NCBI RefSeq assembly: GCF_030013205.1
Contig: NZ_CP122648.1
Strand: one strand, 5' to 3'
Length of the DNA: 64,000 nucleotides
DNA from: Escherichia coli
GTDB lineage: Bacteria; Pseudomonadota; Gammaproteobacteria; Enterobacterales; Enterobacteriaceae
In this document: positions 24,802 to 37,824 of the stretch, in pieces
Position numbering within the stretch: the stretch's first letter is position 1
Layout: every line of letters starts with the position of its first letter
Notes under the pieces: generated by a model
The model's input: the letters and a program-made list of their open reading frames with translations, nothing else
Told to the model about the DNA's origin: nothing
Database searches by the model: none
Made by a program: the position numbers and the translations under genes

Positions 24802-26160
24802 CTACATGTAATATCTAGTAATAATGGAAGGAATCATTGCGTTCAACGAAACAATTAACATTATAACTGTGATAATGTACGCAATCATTTGTTTTTTCTT
24901 GTTCTGGCTCATTAACAAGAAGGCGGAAATAATTACAGGAATCACAAAGTATCGCCCCTGAATACCAATTATAACATCGGTAGGAAATTTTGAATATTGC
25001 ACAAGTAATGCGCAAAAAATCAATGCTGCTGACCCAAGTGACACTATAGCCACTGATAAGGAAAAGAATATATGTTTTTTGATTTCCGAATAAGAAATAG
25101 ATAATGATATTAATGCAACTATTACTACAAAAGAAACAATATAAAGATAGGTTGGCATCCATATGTCTAGCCACCCCAACTTCCCTACAAAACTCTTGAA
25201 GTAGAATGAACTGCGACCGTAATCAGAAATGGTATTGTAAATTATACTTAAAATTTCAAATGGATGTTTTAAGTAATATGCTATAACCTCGCCTTGACTT
25301 ATTCCAGGGTGGTTTACCCCTCCATCCACGGTTATTGATATTGTTAATCCTATCCATCCTAGAGATAGCACTGCAGCAAAAAATGGAGGTAACAATCTTA
25401 TTTTTGATTGTGAATAATATGCCGCAATGAATGGTAAAATCAACACTGGTATAAGGTTAGCCCTGCTTGAAACTAGAATAAATGCAATAAATGAAATAAA
25501 TATTAAGCAGGTGTCTCCAATCTCCTTTTTCATTGCCCCTCTTGCAAGTAAGCACATCATAAGAACAGACAATGATGTTGTTATACCATCTATAGTTGTT
25601 GCAATGAACTGAAAAAGCATCATCGGCATGACCATAACACATAAAGCAAGTGCTGGTATTCTATATATGCTATTGGCATATATAATGATTGAGATGCAAG
25701 TTATAAATGCCAGAAATCGCGATATTTTATAAGTGTCTAGGATGGATAAATTAAAAGCTTTACCAAACATAATCCCTATTGACTGAGGGATGTATACAGC
25801 GGGGAAGTAAAATGCTGTGTTTGGTATCTCTTTGTATACTTTGTTATCCCCCCAATTTTTCATATCAATGCCTAACATCATTGAATTGGATATTTTCCCA
25901 ACATGTCCATTATTAAATATTTCAAATGAGTCATTTAGAGACTTATCAATGTAACCACCTGACTTAAAACCATCGTTATTATTTAGGGTTATTACCCCGT
26001 TAGTAAGAAGATAAGCGCGTGAAAAATGATGTGGCTCATCAGGGCTCATAAATGGTGGAGTTACAGAACTTATCGCAATATATAAAACAAAAGAAAAGAT
26101 AAATAAAAATAATTTTTTATGTAATGATTTCATTTGGCAATCACTTATCATTAAAAACAA
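24802..26160 (-). CDS. Polytopic membrane glycosyltransferase (GT-C/GtrC-like, serotype-specific O-antigen modification candidate)
   Basis: 452-aa AT-rich multi-TM ORF between gtrA and the GT2 gene; 20-bp overlap with gtrA. Confidence 0.55.
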   Translation of the reverse strand: MFLMISDCQMKSLHKKLFLFIFSFVLYIAISSVTPPFMSPDEPHHFSRAYLLTNGVITLNNNDGFKSGGYIDKSLNDSFEIFNNGHVGKISNSMMLGIDMKNWGDNKVYKEIPNTAFYFPAVYIPQSIGIMFGKAFNLSILDTYKISRFLAFITCISIIIYANSIYRIPALALCVMVMPMMLFQFIATTIDGITTSLSVLMMCLLARGAMKKEIGDTCLIFISFIAFILVSSRANLIPVLILPFIAAYYSQSKIRLLPPFFAAVLSLGWIGLTISITVDGGVNHPGISQGEVIAYYLKHPFEILSIIYNTISDYGRSSFYFKSFVGKLGWLDIWMPTYLYIVSFVVIVALISLSISYSEIKKHIFFSLSVAIVSLGSAALIFCALLVQYSKFPTDVIIGIQGRYFVIPVIISAFLLMSQNKKKQMIAYIITVIMLIVSLNAMIPSIITRYYM

Positions 26161-26500
26161 TAAATTTTGCGTACAAGAAGCCTATAAATAAGCTTATTGC
26201 TGAAAATATAATGGCGCTAAGCATAGGTGGCGTATAAAGTATGTCTCCAACCCATCCAACGCAAGAGCTGAGTATTCCCATAAATCCCACATAGAGTAGA
26301 TATCGCATTGTTGATGTTCTTGACATAAATGTGAATCTGGCATTTGCAAAGAATGAGAAGCTTACTGCAAAGATAAAACCGGCTAAATTAGATAACGCTT
26401 GGGTTGCGTGCATTGAATAATAACAAAAAGCAAATATAACCCAATGTATGATTGTGTTGATGATGCCAATAGATGTGTACTTAGCGAACAATTTTAACAT
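26141..26500 (-). CDS. gtrA: GtrA-family flippase-like small membrane protein
   Basis: 119-aa ORF MLKLFAKYTSIGIINTIIHWVIFAFCYY...FFANARFTF... matches the GtrA family. Confidence 0.85.
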   Translation of the reverse strand: MLKLFAKYTSIGIINTIIHWVIFAFCYYSMHATQALSNLAGFIFAVSFSFFANARFTFMSRTSTMRYLLYVGFMGILSSCVGWVGDILYTPPMLSAIIFSAISLFIGFLYAKFIVFNDK

Positions 26501-26650
26501 TTTTTTGTCAACTAACTCTTAAAGGGGGGAGTCTATCACTTTAGTCTCAATCGATCGATACTTGCTGTGGTTGATGGGGCAAAACTGAGACACAAAAAGC
26601 TTTGCACTGGATTGCAAGGCTTTGTGCACTTCGATAGTGGTTAAGGTGGA

Positions 26651-27808
26651 TCACTCCACCTTTTCATCAATCCAGTCCGCCCACCACTGCATCATCTCCC
26701 GGCGCTTATCGAGATACTGAGCATGGTTGTAAATCCCGCGCACAGATCCGCCGTTGGCATGTGCCAGTTGCACTTCAATAGCATCAGCAGGCCATTCGTG
26801 CTCGTTCATAATCGTGCTGAATTCATGCCTGAATCCGTGACCGCTTTCCAGACCTTCATAGCCGATTTGTTTGATCACAAGCAGTACAGCGTTCTCGCAG
26901 ATTGGCTTCTTCTTATCGTTGCGCCCGGCAAAAACAAACTCTGATACTGGTTTAGTGATTGAGCTTAGTGTAGTGAGAAGTTCAACCACCTGGTCTGACA
27001 TCGGGACAACATGAATTTTGCGTCCCTTCATCACACTGGCGTCGATGGTGATAATCCTGTTTTCAAAATCGACGTTCTTCCATAGCATGGAACGAAGCTC
27101 TTTTGTTCTTAGGGCTGTGTAGCGTAAAACTTTGGTCGCAATGAGCGATACGATACTTCCTGAAAATGTTGCAAGTGCTTTGTTGAATGCCGGGATCTGG
27201 TCGGCAGGTAAAAACGGGAAGTTCTTCTTGCGGTATCCCTTCATGGCGTCAGCAAGGTCAGGTGCCGGGTTATATTTAGCCCTACCAGTAACAATAGCGT
27301 AACGGAAAACCTCGCCGCATCTTCTGCGTGCTTTGTTGGCTCGCTCCATTGCACCGCGATCTTCAAATCTGCGGATTACTTCCAGAAGTTGCATCGGCTC
27401 AATATCCTGAATTTCAAGGCCGCCGATGATAGGTAAAATGTCGTCATCAAACATTTTTGCAAGTTCATTTGCATAGCCTACTGACCAGACTTGCTTCTTG
27501 TGCTCGTACCATTCCTTGTAAATGGCGCTAAAGGAATTGTTGTTAGACGAAGCCTTTTTCGCCTTTACCGGATCGATGCCAACCGAGATGTCTTTCCTCG
27601 CAGTCCATGCTTTATCCCTTGCCTCTTGCAAAGTCATAAGCGGATATTTTCCGACGGTCAGGATTTTCTCCTTACCGTCAATCTTGTAGCGAAGCTGCCA
27701 TACCTTTTTCCCTGATACAGGGACATAAAGATACAGGCCATTACCATCGAGTAGGCGGTATGGTTTTTCTTTCGGCTTTGCTGCTTCAATCTGCTTAACG
27801 GTGAGCAT
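26651..27808 (-). CDS. intS: Tyrosine integrase, IntS/CP4-57 type (DUF4102 arm-binding N-domain)
   Basis: Start taken at MLTVKQIEAAKPKEKPYRLLDGNGLYLYV...; C-terminal ...HGFRHEFSTIMNE... catalytic region; adjacent to an argW-derived att copy. The track's upstream GTG start is judged less likely. Confidence 0.85.
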   Translation of the reverse strand: MLTVKQIEAAKPKEKPYRLLDGNGLYLYVPVSGKKVWQLRYKIDGKEKILTVGKYPLMTLQEARDKAWTARKDISVGIDPVKAKKASSNNNSFSAIYKEWYEHKKQVWSVGYANELAKMFDDDILPIIGGLEIQDIEPMQLLEVIRRFEDRGAMERANKARRRCGEVFRYAIVTGRAKYNPAPDLADAMKGYRKKNFPFLPADQIPAFNKALATFSGSIVSLIATKVLRYTALRTKELRSMLWKNVDFENRIITIDASVMKGRKIHVVPMSDQVVELLTTLSSITKPVSEFVFAGRNDKKKPICENAVLLVIKQIGYEGLESGHGFRHEFSTIMNEHEWPADAIEVQLAHANGGSVRGIYNHAQYLDKRREMMQWWADWIDEKVE

Positions 27809-27969
27809 GGGTAAAAATCCGGTGGGTAAAATTATTTTATCCACTTTTTACCCGTCATGGAGTGCGGCTGTCAACGATCTGACGCGAACCATGACGAACC
27901 GTGAATATACGGAAGGCTTGATATTCAGGGTATTTTGCGGACTGGTACGGATGGGAGCGAACTGATAAA

Positions 27970-27991
27970 TGGTGTCCCTGCAGAAATCATC
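27970..27991. repeat. argW-derived att copy at the junction of the two tandem islands
   Basis: TGGTGTCCCTGCAGAAATCATC versus argW TGGTGTCCCCTGCAGGAATCGA (one missing C, two mismatches). Confidence 0.7.
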
Positions 27992-28205: not shown

Positions 28206-28454
28206 ATGCGCACACAGGTTGTATTGCAAAAATGGGGTAACAGCATTGCCCTTCGACTAACGGGAAACCTTAAAACCGTTCCGGGTTTTTCAGTGGGTGA
28301 TATCGTCAACGTTGAAATTAGTGAAAAAGGGCTTTTTGTAGAAAAGCCTGCACGCCGTCGCCTGAGTGAAGCCGAACTACTCGCCGGGATAACGCCAGTT
28401 ACAGCGCACGCTGACGAAATTGCCACCCCATTCAATGAGGAGGTTGATTACTGA
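28206..28454 (+). CDS. MazE/PemI/ChpS-family antitoxin (AbrB/SpoVT fold)
   Basis: 82-aa ORF MRTQVVLQKWGNSIALRLTGNLKTVPGFSVGDIVNVEISEKGLFVEKP... Confidence 0.8.
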   Translation: MRTQVVLQKWGNSIALRLTGNLKTVPGFSVGDIVNVEISEKGLFVEKPARRRLSEAELLAGITPVTAHADEIATPFNEEVDY

Positions 28455-28798
28455 TGTTTGTACCTAAGCGTGGTGATATTTGCTGGCTGGATTTTGAGCC
28501 GCAGAAAGGAAAAGAGATCGGAAAGTATCGCCCGGCACTCATACTATCCCATGAGCAATATAACCGACTCACCGGGCTTGTCATATGCTGCCCCATAAGT
28601 ACGAGCATACGAAATGCTCCCACAGAAGTTCCGGTAACAAATCTGGACGCCCCCAGCGTGGTAGCAACCACACTCATTCAAACCCTTGACTGGCGTCAGC
28701 GGAAAGCGCGCTTAATCACAGAGGCAGAAGATGGGGTATTTAATGATGTGCTTGAAAGAGTCATTACTCTGATTGGTGGAGAGCATCTGCTTAAGTAA
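28454..28798 (+). CDS. MazF/PemK-family endoribonuclease toxin
   Basis: 114-aa ORF MFVPKRGDICWLDFEPQKGKEIGKYRPALILSHEQYNRLTGLVICCPISTS..., start overlapping the antitoxin stop. Confidence 0.8.
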   Translation: MFVPKRGDICWLDFEPQKGKEIGKYRPALILSHEQYNRLTGLVICCPISTSIRNAPTEVPVTNLDAPSVVATTLIQTLDWRQRKARLITEAEDGVFNDVLERVITLIGGEHLLK

Positions 28799-28841: not shown

Positions 28842-30113
28842 CTATTCTTTCCAGTCAATCCCATCCAGTAAGCACCCTGCCTCATATTGCCCCACCACCC
28901 AGTCAAGGTTACAGGACTCATAGAACGCGAGGCGATTATACTGAGGCTCGTTTTTTACCAGGCCACGAACGGAACCACGCTGCCAGTACAGACACAGATT
29001 GGCAAGAGGTGTGATCAATACAGCATTGTCCGGGAAAAATGGAACGGTCACAGCCGGGAGATTCCCCAGAACGGGATTTTTAATGATTTCCTCGTTAAGC
29101 AAAATTTCCTGATTCATCTGCGATGGATCAAGACGGTTTATCAAAGGCCATTGTTTACGGACCAGCGTATTGTGACTGCATACGGCCACAATGCCTTCCT
29201 GCCACTGTTCATCAATCATGGATTGCCAGGCATCCAGAACGAGCGCATCTATCGTATGGTGTGTACCGCGTATATTACTTTTCGGTGATGAGACAGAAAG
29301 GCCGCTGATAACCCTTCCCGCCGCTTCATTTCGAAACTTCTGCAACCAGCCCACGCCGCAATCGTCACGCCCCGGATATGTTCCGGGATCTGATACATCG
29401 GCATAGTGCGTACCGTTAAAACCAATCTGAATCAAATCCAGCCATTTCTGGCGTTCAAAAGCAGCCCGGGCGCTTCCTTCAAGACCGTTTGCGGATGCGT
29501 GAGCATCAACATTGTCGTAGTTCAGCGCAAAATCAAAATTAACCTGCTCGCAGCGGTAGCCCCTTGAAACCAGTGAATGCGCCTGTAGTGGCGAGCGGCG
29601 CTCGTGAGGTGGCGATGTACGTGCTAACGGCCCCGAAGCGTCTACCAGCACAACCTGACCTGATATATCCGTAACAGGCACGGGAGTTATTTCAGCAAGG
29701 AAATTTGCCTGCCATCCACTGGCAAGCGTTGCACTCTGGCGGGGGACGGGTTCAACTTCTGACGAATAGCGCGCAGTGTCACCGGAAAAGTGCAAATCCT
29801 TCGGATGCTTTCCGGTTATCGACTCGATAGCGCAATTGAAAACCATCTGAGACTGTTGATTTCGTTGTGATACAACAGAATCAGCAGTGCAATTATAACG
29901 CTCAATGCCGTCGTTATTACCCCCACCGCTTGCAGTATGCAGGGTGTGAAGCTCAAGCTCACGCTCCAGTTTTTGATATTCATTGTCCAGCGCGCGACGC
30001 GTCTCATCGCTTATGCTTGCTGTGTTTGCTTTCAGGCGATTCCGGGACATTAATCCCCTGAGTCGGCTCACTATATCAGCGCCGTGCAAATGTGGAGTAT
30101 TCAGACCGCCCAT
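28842..30113 (-). CDS. P2 gpN-family major capsid protein homologue with divergent N-terminal region
   Basis: Start taken at internal ATG 30113 (TAATG overlap with the upstream gene stop). C-terminal two-thirds align by eye with P2 gpN (...YRCEQVNFDF..., ...GWLQKFRNEAAGRV..., ...GNLPAVTVPFFPDNAVLITPLANL..., ...YESCNLDWVVGQYEAGCL...). Confidence 0.7.
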   Translation of the reverse strand: MGGLNTPHLHGADIVSRLRGLMSRNRLKANTASISDETRRALDNEYQKLERELELHTLHTASGGGNNDGIERYNCTADSVVSQRNQQSQMVFNCAIESITGKHPKDLHFSGDTARYSSEVEPVPRQSATLASGWQANFLAEITPVPVTDISGQVVLVDASGPLARTSPPHERRSPLQAHSLVSRGYRCEQVNFDFALNYDNVDAHASANGLEGSARAAFERQKWLDLIQIGFNGTHYADVSDPGTYPGRDDCGVGWLQKFRNEAAGRVISGLSVSSPKSNIRGTHHTIDALVLDAWQSMIDEQWQEGIVAVCSHNTLVRKQWPLINRLDPSQMNQEILLNEEIIKNPVLGNLPAVTVPFFPDNAVLITPLANLCLYWQRGSVRGLVKNEPQYNRLAFYESCNLDWVVGQYEAGCLLDGIDWKE

Positions 30114-30823
30114 TACTGCCACCCCCGGCAGAGTTCTCTGCCCTCCGCAAGGTCGCGCATTTTTTCTGGATTCTGTCGCGCCGCGCTCCATTGTACAGGT
30201 GAAGGGGCGCTCCTGATTGCGCAGCTTACTGAATCCGGGAGTTTCTCCGGGCAATAACGCAGCGGGCTGGAGGTGTCGCTTTCGGTATCGTTAATCCGGC
30301 CGCGAATCATCCCGACACTTTCAGCAGTATCTGCCGCTTTCAGTGTTTCGCATATTTTCTTTTCTGCGTTATACAGCGGCTGGCCAAGTAGCTCACATAA
30401 ACCACGAATCAATAACAGAACAGGGGTCAGCTCGTTAATCAGTTCGGGAAGTGCTTTTGCAAATATCTCTGCCCGCAACTTATTATCAATGCTTTCGTAA
30501 GCACAACCAGCCTCTGCCGCGTTATAACGACACTCCAGTAGCCTGATGCGCGCTTCATCATGCAATACCCGCAGACGCTCAAGATTTTCTCGCGCCACAC
30601 CCGCCTGAATGGATAATTTCGCGGAGGCTTCCGTTTTTACGCCCAGCGCAGACAGGATTGAGTTCTGCCAGTCACGATCGAGAGATTCCAGCTCCCCTTT
30701 CGTCTGTTCGATAGTCGCTTCCAGATTGGTGATTAATGATTCCTGTTCACTGAGTTTTGCCATGGCTGTATCAAACTGTGCTTTACATACCTGATGTTCG
30801 GCGCTTGCCTGAGTTATATCCAT
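30113..30823 (-). CDS. Coiled-coil protein coupled to the capsid homologue (candidate scaffold, Sid or Psu-like morphogenetic factor)
   Basis: 236-aa helical ORF immediately upstream of and overlapping the capsid gene start; assignment is positional. Confidence 0.4.
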   Translation of the reverse strand: MDITQASAEHQVCKAQFDTAMAKLSEQESLITNLEATIEQTKGELESLDRDWQNSILSALGVKTEASAKLSIQAGVARENLERLRVLHDEARIRLLECRYNAAEAGCAYESIDNKLRAEIFAKALPELINELTPVLLLIRGLCELLGQPLYNAEKKICETLKAADTAESVGMIRGRINDTESDTSSPLRYCPEKLPDSVSCAIRSAPSPVQWSAARQNPEKMRDLAEGRELCRGWQ

Positions 30824-30873
30824 TATTTGCTCCTGTAATACATTTTTTTACTTACGCCGATTTTTTCCATATT

Positions 30874-30934
30874 GCGTAATACATTCCAGCCGATTTTGTT
30901 CTCGTAATACGCTCACAATACTGTTGTATTACGC
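30874..30934. promoter_or_regulatory. Three palindromic operator-like sites GCGTA(A/T)TACGC in the divergent promoter region
   Basis: Sites at 30874-30882, 30903-30912 and 30926-30934 between the coiled-coil gene start (30823) and the RHH gene start (30989); further copies at 31014-31024, 31545-31555 and 31906-31913. Confidence 0.55.
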
Positions 30935-30988
30935 TTTCTTATATCGCGGGTGTTAAATCCCGGCATAAACAATCAGGGAGGCAACACG

Positions 30989-31222
30989 ATGAAAAAACAA
31001 AAGAAAATGCGATGCGTATTACGCTGTATTCGTATCCCGCACGAAATCGACCATAAAATAAATCAGATATGTGAGGACAGAGAGATGAACTACTCCCAGT
31101 GCGTCAGAATGTTTATCAGTCAGGGAATTAAGGCCGGGGAAAAGCAGGAAGAAGACCACAACGGGCGCAATGTAGCGGGGGATGTGTGGGCCTGGGCAAA
31201 TGACCAGAACCACACGACGTAA
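30989..31222 (+). CDS. Small ribbon-helix-helix-like putative transcriptional regulator
   Basis: 77-aa product MKKQKKMRCVLRCIRIPHEIDHKINQICEDREMNYSQCVRMFISQGIKAG...; GGGAGG RBS 8 nt upstream; divergent from the capsid operon. Confidence 0.45.
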   Translation: MKKQKKMRCVLRCIRIPHEIDHKINQICEDREMNYSQCVRMFISQGIKAGEKQEEDHNGRNVAGDVWAWANDQNHTT

Positions 31223-31272
31223 TACAGAAATAACGCAGCCGGTCACACTCGCTGGCTGTGTTATACAAATCA

Positions 31273-31455
31273 CTATGAAGTTTTCGACTTCCTGCGCTTA
31301 GTAATGCGTACAAACGACTCAAGCGTACAAAAACAAGCCCCACACTCAATATTGTTGCACTGGTAATACGTTCTGTAGATGTTTTGTTCGTGTTCTTCCA
31401 ACGAACGACCACGGGTGCGAGCTGAAGCGCCACAGGCCGGGCAAGGGAAAGACAT
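31273..31455 (-). CDS. Ogr/Delta-family zinc-finger late-gene transcriptional activator
   Basis: 60-aa ORF MSFPCPACGASARTRGRSLEEHEQNIYRTYYQCNNIECGACFCTLESF... with the CPxC...RT.R...YxQCxNxxCxxxFxTxES pattern of P2 Ogr. Confidence 0.8.
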   Translation of the reverse strand: MSFPCPACGASARTRGRSLEEHEQNIYRTYYQCNNIECGACFCTLESFVRITKRRKSKTS

Positions 31456-31817
31456 ATCGCGCTCCTCTTACTGGCGTGAAATTTAACCTATTATATCTTC
31501 CGTTGCCTCCTCTGGCTGTATCAAATAAATCCGCGATGGTCGCTGCGTATTACGCGCAGACACACCGTTCCCATGCTCACTCCTCACATTCCCCGTATCA
31601 ATTCTCTCTTGCCGTAAGAACGGCTCTGGCTGGCGATAAAACTAACCCGGTCAGGCATTCCCGCAGTCTTTAGCGAAAGATGTAATTTACCCCCTGAAAC
31701 GCGGGCTGTTCCCCCGTCACCTGCGCGCGAAAAACTCACCGTTTTTTGTGCACGCACGAAATCGCCCTCCGGGCGCGCCAGTACCGGGCCGGATGGGCAA
31801 AAAGTTACTCTAAAAAA

Positions 31818-31845
31818 TTGTGCAAATTTGTGCACTTTTGTGCAG
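31818..31845. promoter_or_regulatory. Three direct TTGTGCA repeats with 10-bp phasing (operator-like)
   Basis: TTGTGCAAATTTGTGCACTTTTGTGCAG; a fourth TTGTGCAC at 31746-31753. Confidence 0.45.
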
Positions 31846-32059
31846 ATGAACAACAGCGTCAAAAAGAGTGCTTTTGAGAGATTTTTTATGGCAACTGCGC
31901 CGCGTGTATTACGTTTTTACCATCCCCGCCGCGCATGTACATACTTCATTTTTCTGCCAAACAACAGGGCAACTCCCCGTGACTGACAGCCCCAAAAAAT
32001 CAATGATTAATGTTGCGTCTTTGTTAGAGGTCAGATCAGTTGTTTTGGGACTCTGCCTC

Positions 32060-32383
32060 AAAATCCGGTAGGGGGTGCGGAAACGGGTTACAAAGGTTAC
32101 ACCCCCCTAAAACACACTATAATCATATGATTTTAAAACATATTTCTTGTAACCTTTTTGAGGTTACAGAAGGTTACACGAGGTTACAGCTCTCAAAAAC
32201 AGATTAATTATCAATTAATTATAAATTTAACCTGTAACCAACAGTAACCACTACATAAAGGTTACATGTAACCCTGTTGTAACCCGTTTGTAACCTTTTA
32301 AATTTATTATAATATATTGATATATAATACGTTTTTCTGTTTGTAACCTTTGTAACCCGTTTCCGCACCCCCCCCCGGATTTT
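32060..32383. repeat. Block of about 14 GGTTACA/TGTAACC repeats flanked by near-perfect inverted repeats of about 40 bp (candidate attP-like or origin region)
   Basis: Left arm AAAATCCGGTAGGGGGTGCGGAAACGGGTTACAAAGGTTACA (32060-32101) is the reverse complement of the right arm (about 32339-32383); AT-rich core with both-orientation GTAACC repeats. Confidence 0.6.
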
Positions 32384-32628
32384 AGCGCGACCCTTTAAAA
32401 TGTTAATTAAACTCACTAACTCTGTATCACTCTCATTAACTCTCTATGATTGAAATGTATCTCACTGCTGTTTAACTCTTTCTGATAATCAAGAAAGGAG
32501 AGCAAAAAACTGATGGCGCTACCGCTGCAATATGGCCACCATCGCATTGCTGTTACCGTTGGCTTTGGCCAACAAAAAAGGCCAGTGGAAAACTGACCTC
32601 TTTTGCTGTGAATGTAGTGTTCTGCGGG

Positions 32629-33630
32629 TTACTCTACTGGCTCTTTTTGTTCAGTGAATGCCATGTTAGCTATCGGGTTAAACCTCATGGCATCCGCCAG
32701 ATAGTCGGGGGAAAAATGCGCATAAGTCATCGTTTGCTGGATAGTCGCATGTCCAAGAATCCGTTGTAATGTAACGATATTCCCACCGTTAATCATAAAG
32801 TGTGTGGCAAATGTATGACGCATGACATGCGTAGCCTGCCCCTTCGGTAAATCCGGCTTCACCTCCTGAAGGATCTCCCGGAACTTCAGATAATCAACCT
32901 GATACAACAACCCCGTCCGGCGGGTCTTAATCAGCGGCACGACCGAATCAGCCACAGGAACCGAACGGGATTTTCCGTTTTTGGTGTTAAAGAACGTCAC
33001 CCGGTTGCCAATGATGTGCTCTCCACGTAGTTCCGATGCTTCACTCCATCGGGCACCAGTAGAAAGACACAGAATGGCAACACGACGCGCATCACCCTCC
33101 AGTCGCTCAAGAAGCCGCTCAATCTCATCATCAGAAAGAAAGGCCATCTCTGTATTCTGAATTTTTAGCTTGCGTATACCGCGTACAGGGTTCGGGTTGT
33201 GAAAGACCTCAGCTTCAATCAGCACCGTGAACATGGTAGACAGAACGCACAAGTCACGATTAATGCTGGATGGCATTAAGCCGGCCTGTAATTTCTCTGA
33301 CCGATACTCAAGCATAAATTTTTGCGTCATCTGGCTGGCACGCGGATCTCCCATTTCACGAATCACTTTCTCCATCCGGATCCTGTAGGTATCACCGTAA
33401 GCCTGGTTACGGCCATCAAGCATCCACCATATATCAAGCAGCTCTGATAATCTCCGTCGATCAGCAGGTTTAGCCAGCCATGGGTTGTTATGGAAATTCT
33501 GTAAAATATGTTCTTTGAAGGCCTCCGCACTCCCTTTCCTGACAAAAATTTTACGTATCCGTTTGCCGTACGCCCCTTGGGGCCTGATATCGAGCAGCCA
33601 TCGCCCATCATCCATCTTTCTGATCGACAT
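32629..33630 (-). CDS. P2-type tyrosine integrase
   Basis: 333-aa ORF MSIRKMDDGRWLLDIRPQGAYGKRIRKIF...LSELLDIWW...INRDLCVLSTMFTVLIEAE...ILCLSTGARWSEA...GQATHVMRHTFATHFMINGGNIVTLQRILGHATIQQTMTYAHF matches P2 Int in length and motifs. Confidence 0.8.
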   Translation of the reverse strand: MSIRKMDDGRWLLDIRPQGAYGKRIRKIFVRKGSAEAFKEHILQNFHNNPWLAKPADRRRLSELLDIWWMLDGRNQAYGDTYRIRMEKVIREMGDPRASQMTQKFMLEYRSEKLQAGLMPSSINRDLCVLSTMFTVLIEAEVFHNPNPVRGIRKLKIQNTEMAFLSDDEIERLLERLEGDARRVAILCLSTGARWSEASELRGEHIIGNRVTFFNTKNGKSRSVPVADSVVPLIKTRRTGLLYQVDYLKFREILQEVKPDLPKGQATHVMRHTFATHFMINGGNIVTLQRILGHATIQQTMTYAHFSPDYLADAMRFNPIANMAFTEQKEPVE

Positions 33631-33632
33631 AC

Positions 33633-36302
33633 TTAAGCCCCCTCCTTGTTACTAAATATCCAGCATTTCAATACCTCCTTCTCTCTGGCCTCGGCTATTC
33701 CCCTCCCGGCGTTCGCCTGTCTGGATACCTCGCTACGGACGGGCTTGTATCCAATCAGCGATCGAGAACGGCCAGCCTTGAGAAGCTTTATCATTTCGGG
33801 ATTGGTTTGGGTCTTCACGTGGTGAACGGCGGCAACCTGCTCAAGTTGCGGGATACTGACGGCAAACTCATTCTGCCGTCCCTTGCCAAAATGATTTACG
33901 CCGTATGCTGTGATGCCGTCCAGATAGTCGAACGCCTCCCAGAACGCCATCACTTCCGGCAAGTCATCCATTACCGCTTTAGCCTGCTCCTCTGCCATTC
34001 GCTCCAGTTCCAGACATGTGGCATCAAGCCATTCATCCGGGATATCAATAACGCATTTCAGCGCCCTGACCAGTGCAATTAGTTGCGCGTGATTTTTGGC
34101 AATACGCTGATGGCGAATATTCTCGCAACCGTAAAGGCGGGTTGTTTCAGAATCCGAGAGTGCCATAAACAGATCCATAATCGCCCGCTCCTGGCTTACT
34201 GCCCGATGGATAAAACCTGATACCTGCTCAACGGGGTAAAGCTCCAGCCGTTTTGCTGCCAGTCGGCTATCTGGTGAGTGGCGTTTTTTATCGGTGTATA
34301 TACGTACCAGACGCTCGATAATTGCCGATGAGGCGTTTACCGTGGCATTCTGCGCAATCACGACAGCCCCTTTAAAAACGGGGTCATATGTGGCGTTATC
34401 ATTAGTTTTAACACCACGTACCCCAATACCACCGCCGTTATAGAGGCTTTTCAGGTTATCAAAGTCAAACGCACCTCTTTTTTGCGCATTGTCCCCCCGG
34501 TCTGCTTCAATCAGAACAACAGGTAATCCGGCGACCTGTCCAAAAGTTCGCTTCCAGCCTGATTCCGATCCTTTGGTTGGATCAACACCTTCATAGTTGT
34601 CACGGCCACACAAACGCCAACAAAAATCAATCAGCGTTGTTTTACCCGTTCCAGGCTCTCCGGTAATCTCAAGAAAAGGGTAAGACGTGTTTTTCTGCCT
34701 GATTTGTTCGCTGAACAACGAACCCAGCCAGAAGGCCAGGGTAATAATTCCCTTTTCACCAAAAGCCAGCCAGAGATCTTCCACCCAGGATATTGTGAAT
34801 TTATCCGGTTTTTTATAGTTAATCTGCAATATTGGTTTTTTATTCAATGGTTTTGCGTTTATGCCATCAATTTCAAAATAATCCTCTTCATTGATTTCGT
34901 AGGTTTTACCATTACAAACCGCGACATCATTAAACAGCCACGCGCCAATCTCTTTGTTGTATCCGATAAAATCCTGACCGATAACATTTTTTATTGCGGG
35001 AAGGTCATTTTTTATTAATGCATCAAGGTGCGCAGTCGTTCCGGTATAAATACCGCCTTTTGCCACATGCAACAGGCGTTTTTTAAATTCAGATGCGGAT
35101 GTTAATTGTCCTGATGTAAAGGTGTTTTTCACCGTCGCACCATCCGGGAACGTAACACGGAAGTAATACCATGCTTCATCCGTGTCATTGTTTCGAATGT
35201 AATAAAGCGGCGCCGGGTTACAGTTTGCGATTTCTTTTACAGCGCCGGATTCCTTAAGTGCAATTTTGCGCGCTTCATCTTCGTCAACATTTCGCTCATT
35301 TATGACGCGTTCAACAGCCTTCATATGGCGCTCAATATCCAGTTTGAACCAGAAAACACGGTTATCAAAAGTAAAATGAAATTCCTTTCGCTCACGAAAG
35401 GAAAACATTATCAGCGCCTTATCTCTCGGAGATTTTGCCAGCAATAAATCACCGTAATAACGGTATCTTTTCACATCATGGCCACGCAGCTTTCCGGCGA
35501 TGTGTAAATCATTCCAGTCGCGTTTATTGCTGTTTTTTCCTGGTAACGCCGCTGCCGTTCTCCAGCCGTCTTCGGCGCTGCGTTCTGCATGTTTTTTCGC
35601 ATAACGCTCACCCGCACGCCCGTTATCCAGCGCCCACACGATAACCGGACGGGGATTATCCCCGCACAGCTTCGCCAGCTCTTCCAGCGCCTTATCAGGG
35701 TAGTTTACGGCAGACATGACAGAAACGGCCGCAATGCCATTCTGGTTAAGGCTGATGGCATCAAAGATACCCTCACAAATCCAGATTTCTTTGGCCTTGC
35801 TTAAATCATCTCCCGGATAAGCCCACCACAACCCCTTGTAGCTGCCGGAAAAATTCGCCTTGCGCGCGAAGCGTTCCGGTCGGTCTATGATGCGCTCCCA
35901 CCACACGCCGTCAGCCAGTGTAAAACGCACAGTAGCGGCCTGTTCGCCGCTTTCCTTGTCCTGGTATCGCTCCTGAGTAAATGCTCCCTTCAGTGGCTCC
36001 ACAGCAATATTGCGTGCTTCCAGAAGATAAGCTGTCGCCGCTGCGTATGGATTGTCTTTCGTGCTGATATAGCGATCTGACCATGATGAAAACACATCCG
36101 GGTAAAGTTCTTTGGTCAACAGGTCTGTACCGCATTTATTTTCGCGCCCACAGTGCACGATGTACGGCCTTTCAAGGCTGGTAAAGAGCTCCTTCTTTCC
36201 ACATTGCGGACAAACACCATACCGGAGGTAGTTATTTTCTTCTTTGAAGTTGTAATCACGGATAAGACGGTTAATAATCTCTTTTCTGGTGTTATGTTTC
36301 AT
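33633..36302 (-). CDS. Primase-helicase replication protein (Cys4 zinc finger + TOPRIM primase + P4/D5-type NTPase)
   Basis: 889-aa ORF with CPQCGKK...HCGRENKCG, TOPRIM-like WICEGIFDAISL and ALDNGRAGERYA, Walker A GEPGTGKT and Walker B VVLIEAD. Confidence 0.75.
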   Translation of the reverse strand: MKHNTRKEIINRLIRDYNFKEENNYLRYGVCPQCGKKELFTSLERPYIVHCGRENKCGTDLLTKELYPDVFSSWSDRYISTKDNPYAAATAYLLEARNIAVEPLKGAFTQERYQDKESGEQAATVRFTLADGVWWERIIDRPERFARKANFSGSYKGLWWAYPGDDLSKAKEIWICEGIFDAISLNQNGIAAVSVMSAVNYPDKALEELAKLCGDNPRPVIVWALDNGRAGERYAKKHAERSAEDGWRTAAALPGKNSNKRDWNDLHIAGKLRGHDVKRYRYYGDLLLAKSPRDKALIMFSFRERKEFHFTFDNRVFWFKLDIERHMKAVERVINERNVDEDEARKIALKESGAVKEIANCNPAPLYYIRNNDTDEAWYYFRVTFPDGATVKNTFTSGQLTSASEFKKRLLHVAKGGIYTGTTAHLDALIKNDLPAIKNVIGQDFIGYNKEIGAWLFNDVAVCNGKTYEINEEDYFEIDGINAKPLNKKPILQINYKKPDKFTISWVEDLWLAFGEKGIITLAFWLGSLFSEQIRQKNTSYPFLEITGEPGTGKTTLIDFCWRLCGRDNYEGVDPTKGSESGWKRTFGQVAGLPVVLIEADRGDNAQKRGAFDFDNLKSLYNGGGIGVRGVKTNDNATYDPVFKGAVVIAQNATVNASSAIIERLVRIYTDKKRHSPDSRLAAKRLELYPVEQVSGFIHRAVSQERAIMDLFMALSDSETTRLYGCENIRHQRIAKNHAQLIALVRALKCVIDIPDEWLDATCLELERMAEEQAKAVMDDLPEVMAFWEAFDYLDGITAYGVNHFGKGRQNEFAVSIPQLEQVAAVHHVKTQTNPEMIKLLKAGRSRSLIGYKPVRSEVSRQANAGRGIAEAREKEVLKCWIFSNKEGA

Positions 36303-36348: not shown

Positions 36349-36648
36349 TTACTCGTTGCTTATTGCTTTGGCAATCCCGGCGGTTTCGGCGCTATGCCAT
36401 GAAAAAATTCCGCCGGATGAATGCATACCAGATTTTATTGATTGTAATTCCCTATAAATAATGTTAGACAGAGATGCAATTTCTTCATTTATAATTTCTG
36501 CTGATGCTCCGCCATTTTTATCGTCAAAAACCACAGATATTAAACTGACGAGATTAATCACATCTGTGAGATCTTCCTTTGCACTTTCTGTAAAAAAGCC
36601 AACATATTCTCTATCTAAAAAATTTTCGCTATTCTGACGTTTAGACAT
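36349..36648 (-). CDS. Hypothetical protein (AT-rich, island-specific)
   Basis: 99-aa ORF, first of a run of small co-oriented genes upstream of the primase gene; no family recognised. Confidence 0.4.
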   Translation of the reverse strand: MSKRQNSENFLDREYVGFFTESAKEDLTDVINLVSLISVVFDDKNGGASAEIINEEIASLSNIIYRELQSIKSGMHSSGGIFSWHSAETAGIAKAISNE

Positions 36649-37304: not shown

Positions 37305-37824
37305 TGCACGCCTCCCGGATACGAATACGGGCAACAGAGACCAGACGGGATGCCGGAAGCAGGGCGCGCGCTTCGCGCTCACTGGCGGCGGTAACGGTAT
37401 GAAGGCGGATATTTTTACCGTGGCACTGCATAAAGCGCCAGATAAAATCAGGGCGTGTTGATATAGCCATTTTGGCGGCTCCTTTGTCTAATTTACGGAG
37501 TCTCGCCAGCACGCTGCTAAACATGGTGGCGGGACGTAACAGGGTTAGCAGACTGGTGACAAAGAAACCAGCAGGCCTTACGGCCTCCCCATTACGCCCC
37601 GCCATAATACGGGAAAGGGTGGTATTACGGGCACAAAAAAACCGCATTACGGAAATATAGCGGCTACCCGCTTTGTCAATCAGGCTGCTAAACCCGGCAC
37701 CCGCTTTATGAGGTGCGGGCAAACGATACGCCATGACAAAAAAGCGAGTCAAGCAATATTGCAAATTATTTTTGCGTGATTGCGCTGAGTAATTGATTTT
37801 TAAGAGTAAAAAAGCCATAATCAT
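37297..37824 (-). CDS. Hypothetical protein (basic, Arg/Ala-rich)
   Basis: 175-aa ORF, first gene downstream of alpA; true start may be the internal MAYRLPAPHKAG... Confidence 0.35.
   Translation of the reverse strand: MIMAFLLLKINYSAQSRKNNLQYCLTRFFVMAYRLPAPHKAGAGFSSLIDKAGSRYISVMRFFCARNTTLSRIMAGRNGEAVRPAGFFVTSLLTLLRPATMFSSVLARLRKLDKGAAKMAISTRPDFIWRFMQCHGKNIRLHTVTAASEREARALLPASRLVSVARIRIREACNV

Follow-up and report, generated by a model that had tools for sequence, protein, structure and literature searches.

A 64,000-nt stretch of Escherichia coli DNA (NCBI RefSeq assembly GCF_030013205.1, contig NZ_CP122648.1), called here the window, contained a two-gene operon encoding a 236-aa protein and a 423-aa homologue of gpN, the major capsid protein (MCP) of phage P2. 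The operon was carried by a 12.7-kb integrative element resembling satellite P4. Both open reading frames (ORFs) were intact on the minus strand, exactly where an earlier reading of the sequence (the original prediction) had placed them, and the same two coding sequences were called by the RefSeq annotation pipeline PGAP in a 100%-identical copy in another E. coli chromosome. At the junction GGCAGTAATGGGC (...GGCAG TAATG GGC...) the stop codon of the 236-aa gene (30113–30115) shared one base with the ATG of the 423-aa gene, as had been predicted. In relatives the two genes overlapped by up to 8 nt or were separated by up to 19 nt, and in one case a 78-aa ORF lay between them. Tight operon linkage was therefore conserved, but the TAATG itself was not.

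The 423-aa protein matched Pfam PF05125 (Phage_cap_P2) at 6.5e-73 (residues 132–419 against positions 38–327 of the 327-position model), phrog_70 at 3.4e-76, and PDB 7jw1_A, the solved gpN chain of the P4 procapsid, at 2e-55 (residues 110–419 against gpN 24–340). When the protein was aligned with P2 gpN and other phage capsids, the match began at about residue 88 (about gpN residue 10), so the unmatched N-terminus covered ~85 residues; the original prediction was right that the C-terminal part aligns with the P2 capsid protein and the N-terminus does not, but its boundary of ~100 residues was too far in. Against the equivalog model TIGR01551 the protein scored 131.6 bits, below the curated cutoff of 219.65. 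It was 34.5% identical to P2 gpN and 35% identical to the MCP of phage P88, these two phage proteins being 41% identical to each other. Judged by these comparisons, the 423-aa protein is a diverged gpN homologue, not an equivalog or an ordinary phage gpN. In the comparison with 7jw1 the whole gpN fold was aligned without breaks, and every region of it was kept and conserved, including those aligning with the N-arm, the P-domain and the A-domain. Within the clade of satellite capsid proteins the region of the “sir loop”, which contacts Sid in gpN, was shorter (GLSVSS in place of KVTDEEG), the C-terminal tail of phage gpN was missing, and three cysteines were invariant.

The N-terminal extension consisted, across the clade, of a conserved segment of ~45 residues (consensus M.F..RI..LI.RN....ASPE.R..LE.EN.KLE.EL) followed by a variable linker of low complexity, and its length in relatives ran from ~60 to ~160 residues (62–161 aa). 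Two helices (residues 14–29 and 36–61) were predicted in the conserved segment by AlphaFold2 (AF2), with a pLDDT (per-residue confidence score) of ~80. No match to gpO of P2 or P88, to gpN or to the 236-aa protein was obtained by hhalign or blastp. HK97 gp5 has a delta domain, a tethered scaffold, and the suggestion that the extension resembles it is only a guess by analogy. The N-terminus of gpN lies inside the procapsid and is cleaved off by the gpO protease (PMC7552001), so the extension would be internal.

The 236-aa protein gave only noise in sequence searches of Pfam, NCBIfam and PDB. A word-indexed homologue search reached close E. coli relatives only, so that an exhaustive profile search was needed. 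Proteins encoded at the same position in related islands were full-length homologues with 18–34% identity, and the C-termini of this family had the motif SPSxxQ...LAxGxExCKG in common. An exhaustive profile search of 1.8 billion (1.8e9) representatives returned 25 clusters only. One of these was a bona fide Sid, the external size-determining scaffold of P4 (phrog_6165, 3.9e-72), found by the family profile at 1.5e-4. The Sid group phrog_6165 in turn matched the family colinearly, at 8.2e-5 for a Klebsiella member and at 0.038 for the window protein. An hhalign comparison of the 19-member family with a 16-member Sid alignment gave a probability of 96.4% (E 1.4e-9, 111 columns), with family residues 23–133 aligned to Sid 30–140 and the C-terminus outside the alignment; the family had no match to P4 Psu by hhalign. 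The AF2 model of the protein was confident (pLDDT 94.6) and showed a long helical hairpin with small helices, and a Foldseek search with this model ranked Sid first, over its full length (TM-score 0.49). The model thus had the Sid/Psu fold, a long helical hairpin stem with a small helical body. These results showed that the 236-aa protein is a distant homologue of Sid, one that the standard Sid profile does not recognise (phrog_6165 E 0.038) and whose homology appears only at the level of profile-profile and structure comparison. The original prediction of a helical, coiled-coil protein was correct as to the helices but incomplete.

The main contact of Sid with gpN is made by its residues 219–224 (TPAQRK), at the start of helix α-6 (PMC7552001). 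A [ST]P[AS]xQ motif followed by a helix was found at that position in Sid, in Psu (FTPAQN) and in the Sid-like family (SPSxxQ, nearly invariant), which suggests that the capsid-binding helix has been retained in the family.

The order of an Ogr_Delta gene, a small ORF in reverse orientation, a gene for a ~240-aa protein and a gpN-like gene was found at seven other loci with full context, one of them with Ogr_Delta inverted. Syntenic loci came from Klebsiella, Salmonella, Erwinia, Pectobacterium, E. coli and one further assembly, so that the search for the pair in other satellite-like islands, as proposed with the original prediction, did find it, syntenic across five genera. In these relatives the module was preceded by the gene for a ~890-aa primase and by a variable slot, which held a tyrosine recombinase in several relatives and HicAB, AIPR or DUF4238 in others; the slot after the capsid gene held MazEF, UDG, nothing or other genes. 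Some relatives also had homologues of P4 epsilon (41–51% identity) and of P4 ORF106. One distant variant of the Sid-like gene encoded a 259-aa protein, and next to it came a capsid gene of 366 aa. An eighth locus, still more distant (L020, 956–3028), comprised a 253-aa Sid-like protein, a separate 78-aa ORF and a 350-aa capsid protein without extension, and the separate ORF may correspond to the extension as a protein of its own. Near this distant module there was also a small Terminase_5 ORF.

Both ORFs were intact in 55 of 56 E. coli copies, which answered the concern that frameshifts had been misread as an intact frame. The ratio of nonsynonymous to synonymous substitution rates (dN/dS) among E. 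coli alleles was 0.12–0.24 for the capsid gene and 0.12–0.30 for the Sid-like gene, so both evolve under purifying selection. A neighbour-joining tree of 69 sequences placed all capsid proteins linked to satellites on one side of a split with 89% bootstrap support and all phage or canonical gpN proteins on the other, and no satellite-linked capsid protein was closer than ~45% identity to a phage protein. This split and this distance indicated that the capsid gene has long resided in satellites and is neither newly captured nor a fragment in decay. Taken together, these data showed the pair to be a core module, conserved and under selection, of a family of P4-like satellites that lacks Psu.

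As shown in Table 1, the element had the general plan of a P4-like satellite. The 3′ end of a tRNA-Arg gene, TGGTGTCCCCTGCAGGAATC, was repeated as TGGTGTCCCTGCAGAAATC at 27970–27988, and with these two att copies as bounds the island measured ~12.7 kb; the second copy was found by reading the sequences, a search for long direct repeats having given none. From the tRNA gene the order was integrase, AlpA, an Icd-like/RNA region, small ORFs, primase-helicase and recombinase, followed by a long non-coding stretch, Ogr/Delta, a divergent 77-aa ORF, the Sid-like/capsid pair and MazEF. The integrase, AlpA-type regulator and Delta/Ogr activator of the SatelliteFinder P4-like core were present. Both RNA matches were above the Rfam gathering score and lay within or beside the Icd-like ORF, and the C4 and isrK RNAs indicate a P4-type RNA immunity region. 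A tblastn search with P4 Psu gave no match, nor was Psu matched in PHROG or Pfam among the proteins scanned. No homologue of epsilon was detected in the window copy: the 99-aa ORF in the corresponding slot had no detectable similarity to epsilon and belonged to a different small family common to two relatives. The divergent 77-aa ORF had no PHROG match and is possibly a regulator. Neither the island nor the rest of the 64-kb window contained a portal, terminase, protease or other head or capsid gene, which upheld the original view of a capsid gene standing without other head genes in a satellite.

Table 1. Features of the operon and of the satellite element carrying it (window coordinates)
Feature	Position	Strand	Remarks
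Satellite gpN-family major capsid homologue	28842..30113	(-)	423 aa incl. stop; residues ~88-423 = full-length gpN
Distant Sid homologue (Sid/Psu fold)	30113..30823	(-)	236 aa; C-terminal motif APSPVQ...LAEGRELCRG
N-terminal extension of the capsid protein, clade-specific, residues 1-88	29850..30113	(-)	Alignments, AF2
Terminator-like hairpin and T-run directly 3′ of the capsid stop codon	28802..28819	(-)	
P2-late-promoter-like dyad TGT-N12-AGA	30900..30917	(-)	94 nt upstream of the Sid-like ATG; one mismatch to TGT-N12-ACA
Conserved non-coding block with four TGCACAA repeats and GCGCGCAGGTGACGGGGGAACAGCCC (G-rich core)	31691..31865	(-)	Candidate P88-type cos/terminase recognition site
tRNA-Arg(CCU); 3′ end = attL	40640..40714	(-)	
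Partial copy of the tRNA-Arg 3′ end = attR	27970..27988	(+)	
P4-type integrase	39199..40461	(-)	52% identical to P4 Int
AlpA-like excisionase/regulator	38378..38599	(-)	phrog_2790 3.4e-09; 36% identity to P4 orf88
C4/CI-type antisense RNA (37522-37609) and isrK (37635-37716)	37522..37716	(-)	Rfam RF01695 79.7 bits, RF01394 52.1 bits
99-aa ORF directly upstream of the primase gene	36349-36648	(-)	Slot of P4 epsilon-like derepression proteins in relatives
Primase/helicase, 889 aa (Zn-ribbon primase, Toprim, DUF927)	33633..36302	(-)	phrog_1139 4e-302; Pfam in relatives
Second tyrosine recombinase, 333 aa, XerC/D-like, directly after the primase gene	32629..33630	(-)	phrog_1 3.5e-69
Ogr/Delta-like zinc-finger late-gene activator, 60 aa	31273..31455	(-)	phrog_603 2.8e-10; PGAP “ogr/Delta-like”; Pfam Ogr_Delta in relatives
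Divergent conserved 77-aa ORF	30989..31222	(+)	ORF of 55-107 aa at same place and orientation in full-context family loci
MazE/MazF toxin-antitoxin cargo, between capsid gene and attR	28206..28798	(+)	phrog_1936 3.3e-27; PGAP names

The pair was carried by 56 of 5426 complete E. coli genomes (at least 95% identity) at several chromosomal positions. In other E. coli the same island lay between gcd and hpt with a different integrase, and the pair was 97–98% identical.

A promoter scan detected no sigma-70 consensus promoter upstream of the Sid-like gene. In three relatives an exact TGT-N12-ACA dyad preceded the Sid-like ATG by 90–101 nt, and the P4 promoter Psid has such a dyad 90 nt upstream of sid. 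Dyads of this type are bound by Ogr/Delta, and the dyad of the window, together with the promoter scan, is at most suggestive of a late operon activated by a helper. The operon probably ends at the terminator-like hairpin after the capsid gene. The 7-mer GTAATAC/GTATTAC was present in nine copies within 30835–31906, out of 20 in the whole window. Its sites flanked the promoter region between the divergent 77-aa ORF and the Sid-like gene as well as the region upstream of ogr/delta, and it also occurred upstream of the Sid-like genes of two relatives; the 7-mer may be an operator.

No copy of the 19-nt cos of P2/P4 was found in the window with up to three mismatches allowed, and no similarity between the element and the cos regions of P4 and P2 was detected by blastn. 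DNA comparison of the family islands revealed one non-coding block common to all six loci compared. In a phage collection this block matched a set of Peduoviridae with 78–82% identity over 160 nt, among them Escherichia phage P88 (Xuanwuvirus), 500465-2 (Gemsvirus), Citrobacter Shae_phiSM and others, the matches to Klebsiella phages being weaker, and a 45-nt stretch was identical between the window block and P88. In P88 the block occupied the non-coding gap just past the 3′ end of the portal gene; in 500465-2 it was found next to the portal gene as well, at nt 133–293 of the linear record. This is the position of cos in P2. By direct reading, GGTGACGGGGGAACAGCCC and the P2 cohesive end GGCGAGGCGGGGAAAGCAC agreed at 13 of 19 positions and differed at 6. 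The block of the Klebsiella island had its best match in Klebsiella phages, and that of the Salmonella island matched an Enterobacter phage and the P88 group. The homology of the block to the P88-type region at the cos position suggests that these satellites carry a P88-like packaging site, and P88-like Peduoviridae, rather than P2, are the probable helpers; the original prediction had noted neither the block nor this link. Head modules of the P88 type occurred in 1140 of the 5426 complete E. coli genomes (21%), and among the matches listed at least three genomes had both such a head module and the satellite. In some genomes a hypothetical ORF was called by PGAP across the block.

We propose, with moderate confidence, that the pair is the capsid-remodelling operon of a 12.7-kb P4-like satellite with P88-like helpers of the P2 family; we infer a remodelling role, analogous to that of Ccm of SaPIbov5, in which the satellite supplies its own shell protein. 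The evidence favours the size-redirecting variant or scaffold pair named among the original alternatives over the decayed P2 fragment, which it rejects. On induction of a helper, activators of the Ogr/Delta type would turn the operon on. The shell would be small, probably T=4, which would fit 12.7 kb, and would consist wholly or partly of the satellite capsid protein; this protein may occupy specific capsomers, as Ccm does in SaPIbov5. Inside the procapsid the N-terminal extension could act as a tethered scaffold or an adaptor, while outside it the Sid-like protein, by way of the conserved helix at its C-terminus, would bridge hexamers. Portal, protease, terminase and tail would come from the helper, and the satellite would be packaged through the shared cos. 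A more specific version is offered only tentatively: the family would be a branch of P4-like satellites specialised on P88-like Peduoviridae, with a small capsid made of its own MCP, an internal scaffold resembling the delta domain fused to it and a cage of the Sid homologue, only portal, protease, terminase and tail being taken from the helper. If true, such a satellite would stand between P4, which takes its whole head from the helper, and capsid-forming phage-inducible chromosomal islands (cf-PICIs), which make a whole head themselves.

Several points weigh against the remodelling proposal. Entry of the satellite capsid protein into particles is a prediction from sequence. The protein is only ~35% identical to the MCP of the presumed helper, yet would have to fit the portal, the protease/scaffold and the head-completion proteins of that helper. 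Its AF2 model was poor (pLDDT 48 from a 19-sequence alignment) and was not used for a fold search, so that the HK97-type fold rests on sequence homology to the solved gpN structure (7jw1). The extension had no detectable relative in the similarity comparisons, which makes its proposed role a guess. The block is taken as cos from its position and the 13/19 resemblance, and an iteron-type replication origin is an alternative. The copy in E. coli K_EC180 also lacks the cos-like block and part of ogr and still has the pair intact, which is compatible with a role independent of transfer. The deletion in this copy, of ~1.6 kb (window ~31400–33005 against L001 16432–17131), truncates ogr/delta and the 333-aa recombinase gene; the Sid-like/capsid pair beside it is 100% identical.

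This last copy is also among the arguments for the main rival explanation, which we consider unlikely: that the pair is a decoy that poisons or misdirects the assembly of P2-family phages through dominant-negative capsomers, protecting the host population and being dispensable for the packaging of the satellite itself. The pair adjoins variable cargo slots with toxin-antitoxin and accessory genes, it stayed 100% intact where the cos-like block was deleted, an identity of 35% to the helper MCP could make co-assembly abortive, and remodelling proteins such as Ccm are known to block the helper as well (PMC8569155). However, the pair is a fixed core module whose place is constant, whereas the genuine cargo on either side changes from island to island; its linkage to Ogr/Delta and to a cos-like block of the helper type is what a morphogenesis operon would show; and neither the pair nor its neighbours matched a defence family in PADLOC. 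In known satellites, moreover, interference does not preclude self-packaging. It is improbable that the Sid-like protein alone redirects helper capsids, with the gpN-like protein in a stabilising or regulatory role like that of Psu, outside the shell lattice. The place of the gpN-like gene after the sid-like gene in an element without Psu would agree with this, as would the finding that in P4 small capsids can be formed by Sid with helper gpN and nothing else (PMC6893505), but retention of the whole HK97-type gpN fold is hard to explain for a protein outside the lattice, and Psu is an all-helical paralogue of Sid with no structural relation to the gpN-like protein.

An HK97-fold protein encoded without other virion genes might also be a cellular nanocompartment of the encapsulin type, unrelated to phage particles. 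This is very improbable, since the gene always lay in a P4-like integrative element with Ogr/Delta, a Sid homologue and a helper-type cos-like block, and no cargo enzyme gene was found. The isolation of the capsid gene from portal and terminase genes, together with a TIGR01551 score of 131.6 under the cutoff of 219.65, could be read as decay of a P2-like prophage head or as a mis-called ORF with hidden frameshifts. Such an origin was excluded, to a negligible residual probability, by the intact ORFs (55/56 E. coli copies), the dN/dS of 0.12–0.30, the synteny across genera, the monophyly of the clade far from any phage gpN and the unbroken alignment of the fold.

The closest functional precedent for the proposed remodelling operon is Ccm of SaPIbov5, and the closest relatives by descent are the P4-like satellites. 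Like P4, the window element is an integrative element of ~12 kb that has its P4-type integrase at a tRNA gene and encodes AlpA, an immunity RNA of the C4/CI type, a primase-helicase and an Ogr/Delta activator. Both have a Sid-fold protein of the same length and, as proposed for the window element, a helper of the P2 family for portal, terminase and tail, and homologues of epsilon and ORF106 exist in some relatives of the window element. Unlike P4, the window element lacks Psu and has its own gpN-family capsid protein; its Sid homologue is detectable only by profile or structure comparison and has a different conserved C-terminal motif; its gene order is putative cos, delta, sid-like, capsid, with a P88-type block and no P2/P4 cos; and its primase-helicase matches P4 alpha over a 27-residue (P-loop) stretch only. 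Beyond the integrase gene there is essentially no DNA similarity between the two.

From P2 gpN and the P88 MCP, whose family and fold it shares along essentially the whole of gpN, the window protein differs in its identity of 34–35%, its place in a clade found only in satellites and its extension of ~85 residues, as well as in the shorter sir loop, the absent C-terminal tail and the clade-invariant cysteines. The cf-PICIs likewise encode a capsid protein of the HK97 fold themselves and rely on a helper for other virion parts. According to Alqurainy et al. in 2023, they reportedly encode a complete head module (capsid, portal, protease, head-tail connectors and small terminase) and take only tails, whereas the window element encodes a shell protein and an external-scaffold homologue only.

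Ccm of SaPIbov5 is a satellite homologue of the capsid protein of helper φ12 and fills the pentamers of small capsids (PMC8569155). SaPIbov5 is a cos-type satellite, as the window element may be, and like it lacks portal and terminase and has a diverged HK97-fold homologue of the helper MCP. It differs in its Gram-positive host, an unrelated capsid lineage, redirection from prolate to isometric capsids and the lack of an external scaffold partner; in the window element the capsid homologue, whose incorporation is predicted, is paired with a Sid homologue and bears an N-terminal extension.

Papers on the diversity of P4-like satellites and on capsid piracy describe psu-delta-sid as the hijacking module and mention no capsid gene, and one of them states that phages have no Sid-like proteins. 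A literature search on gpN-like genes in P4-like satellites, on satellites of P88 and on satellite capsid homologues, with subscription journals mostly outside its reach, found nothing relevant. Within the literature searched, the combination of an own capsid gene, a Sid-like operon partner and a candidate P88-type packaging site is undescribed for P4-like satellites. P2/P4 is the textbook case of capsid-size hijacking, in which Sid reshapes the gpN of the helper. If the remodelling proposal is true, relatives of P4 keep the Sid-type cage, bring their own shell protein and drop Psu, which bears on how satellites shift between “stealing” and “making” capsids and on how far two capsid proteins of 35% identity can share portal, protease and terminase. 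The proposal would also make satellite helpers of prophages of the P88 type, which are very common in E. coli. The family would, as expected from the profiles, fail the standard P4-like models on Psu and Sid, so that satellite counts may be underestimates.

Beyond attR (24802–27844 and upstream; L001 1–12967) lay a prophage remnant with intS and gtrABC (gtrA/gtrB-like) at argW. It also held DUF2142 O-antigen modification genes, P22-like head and tail fragments and IS1. With this remnant beside it, the satellite forms part of a tandem array at argW.

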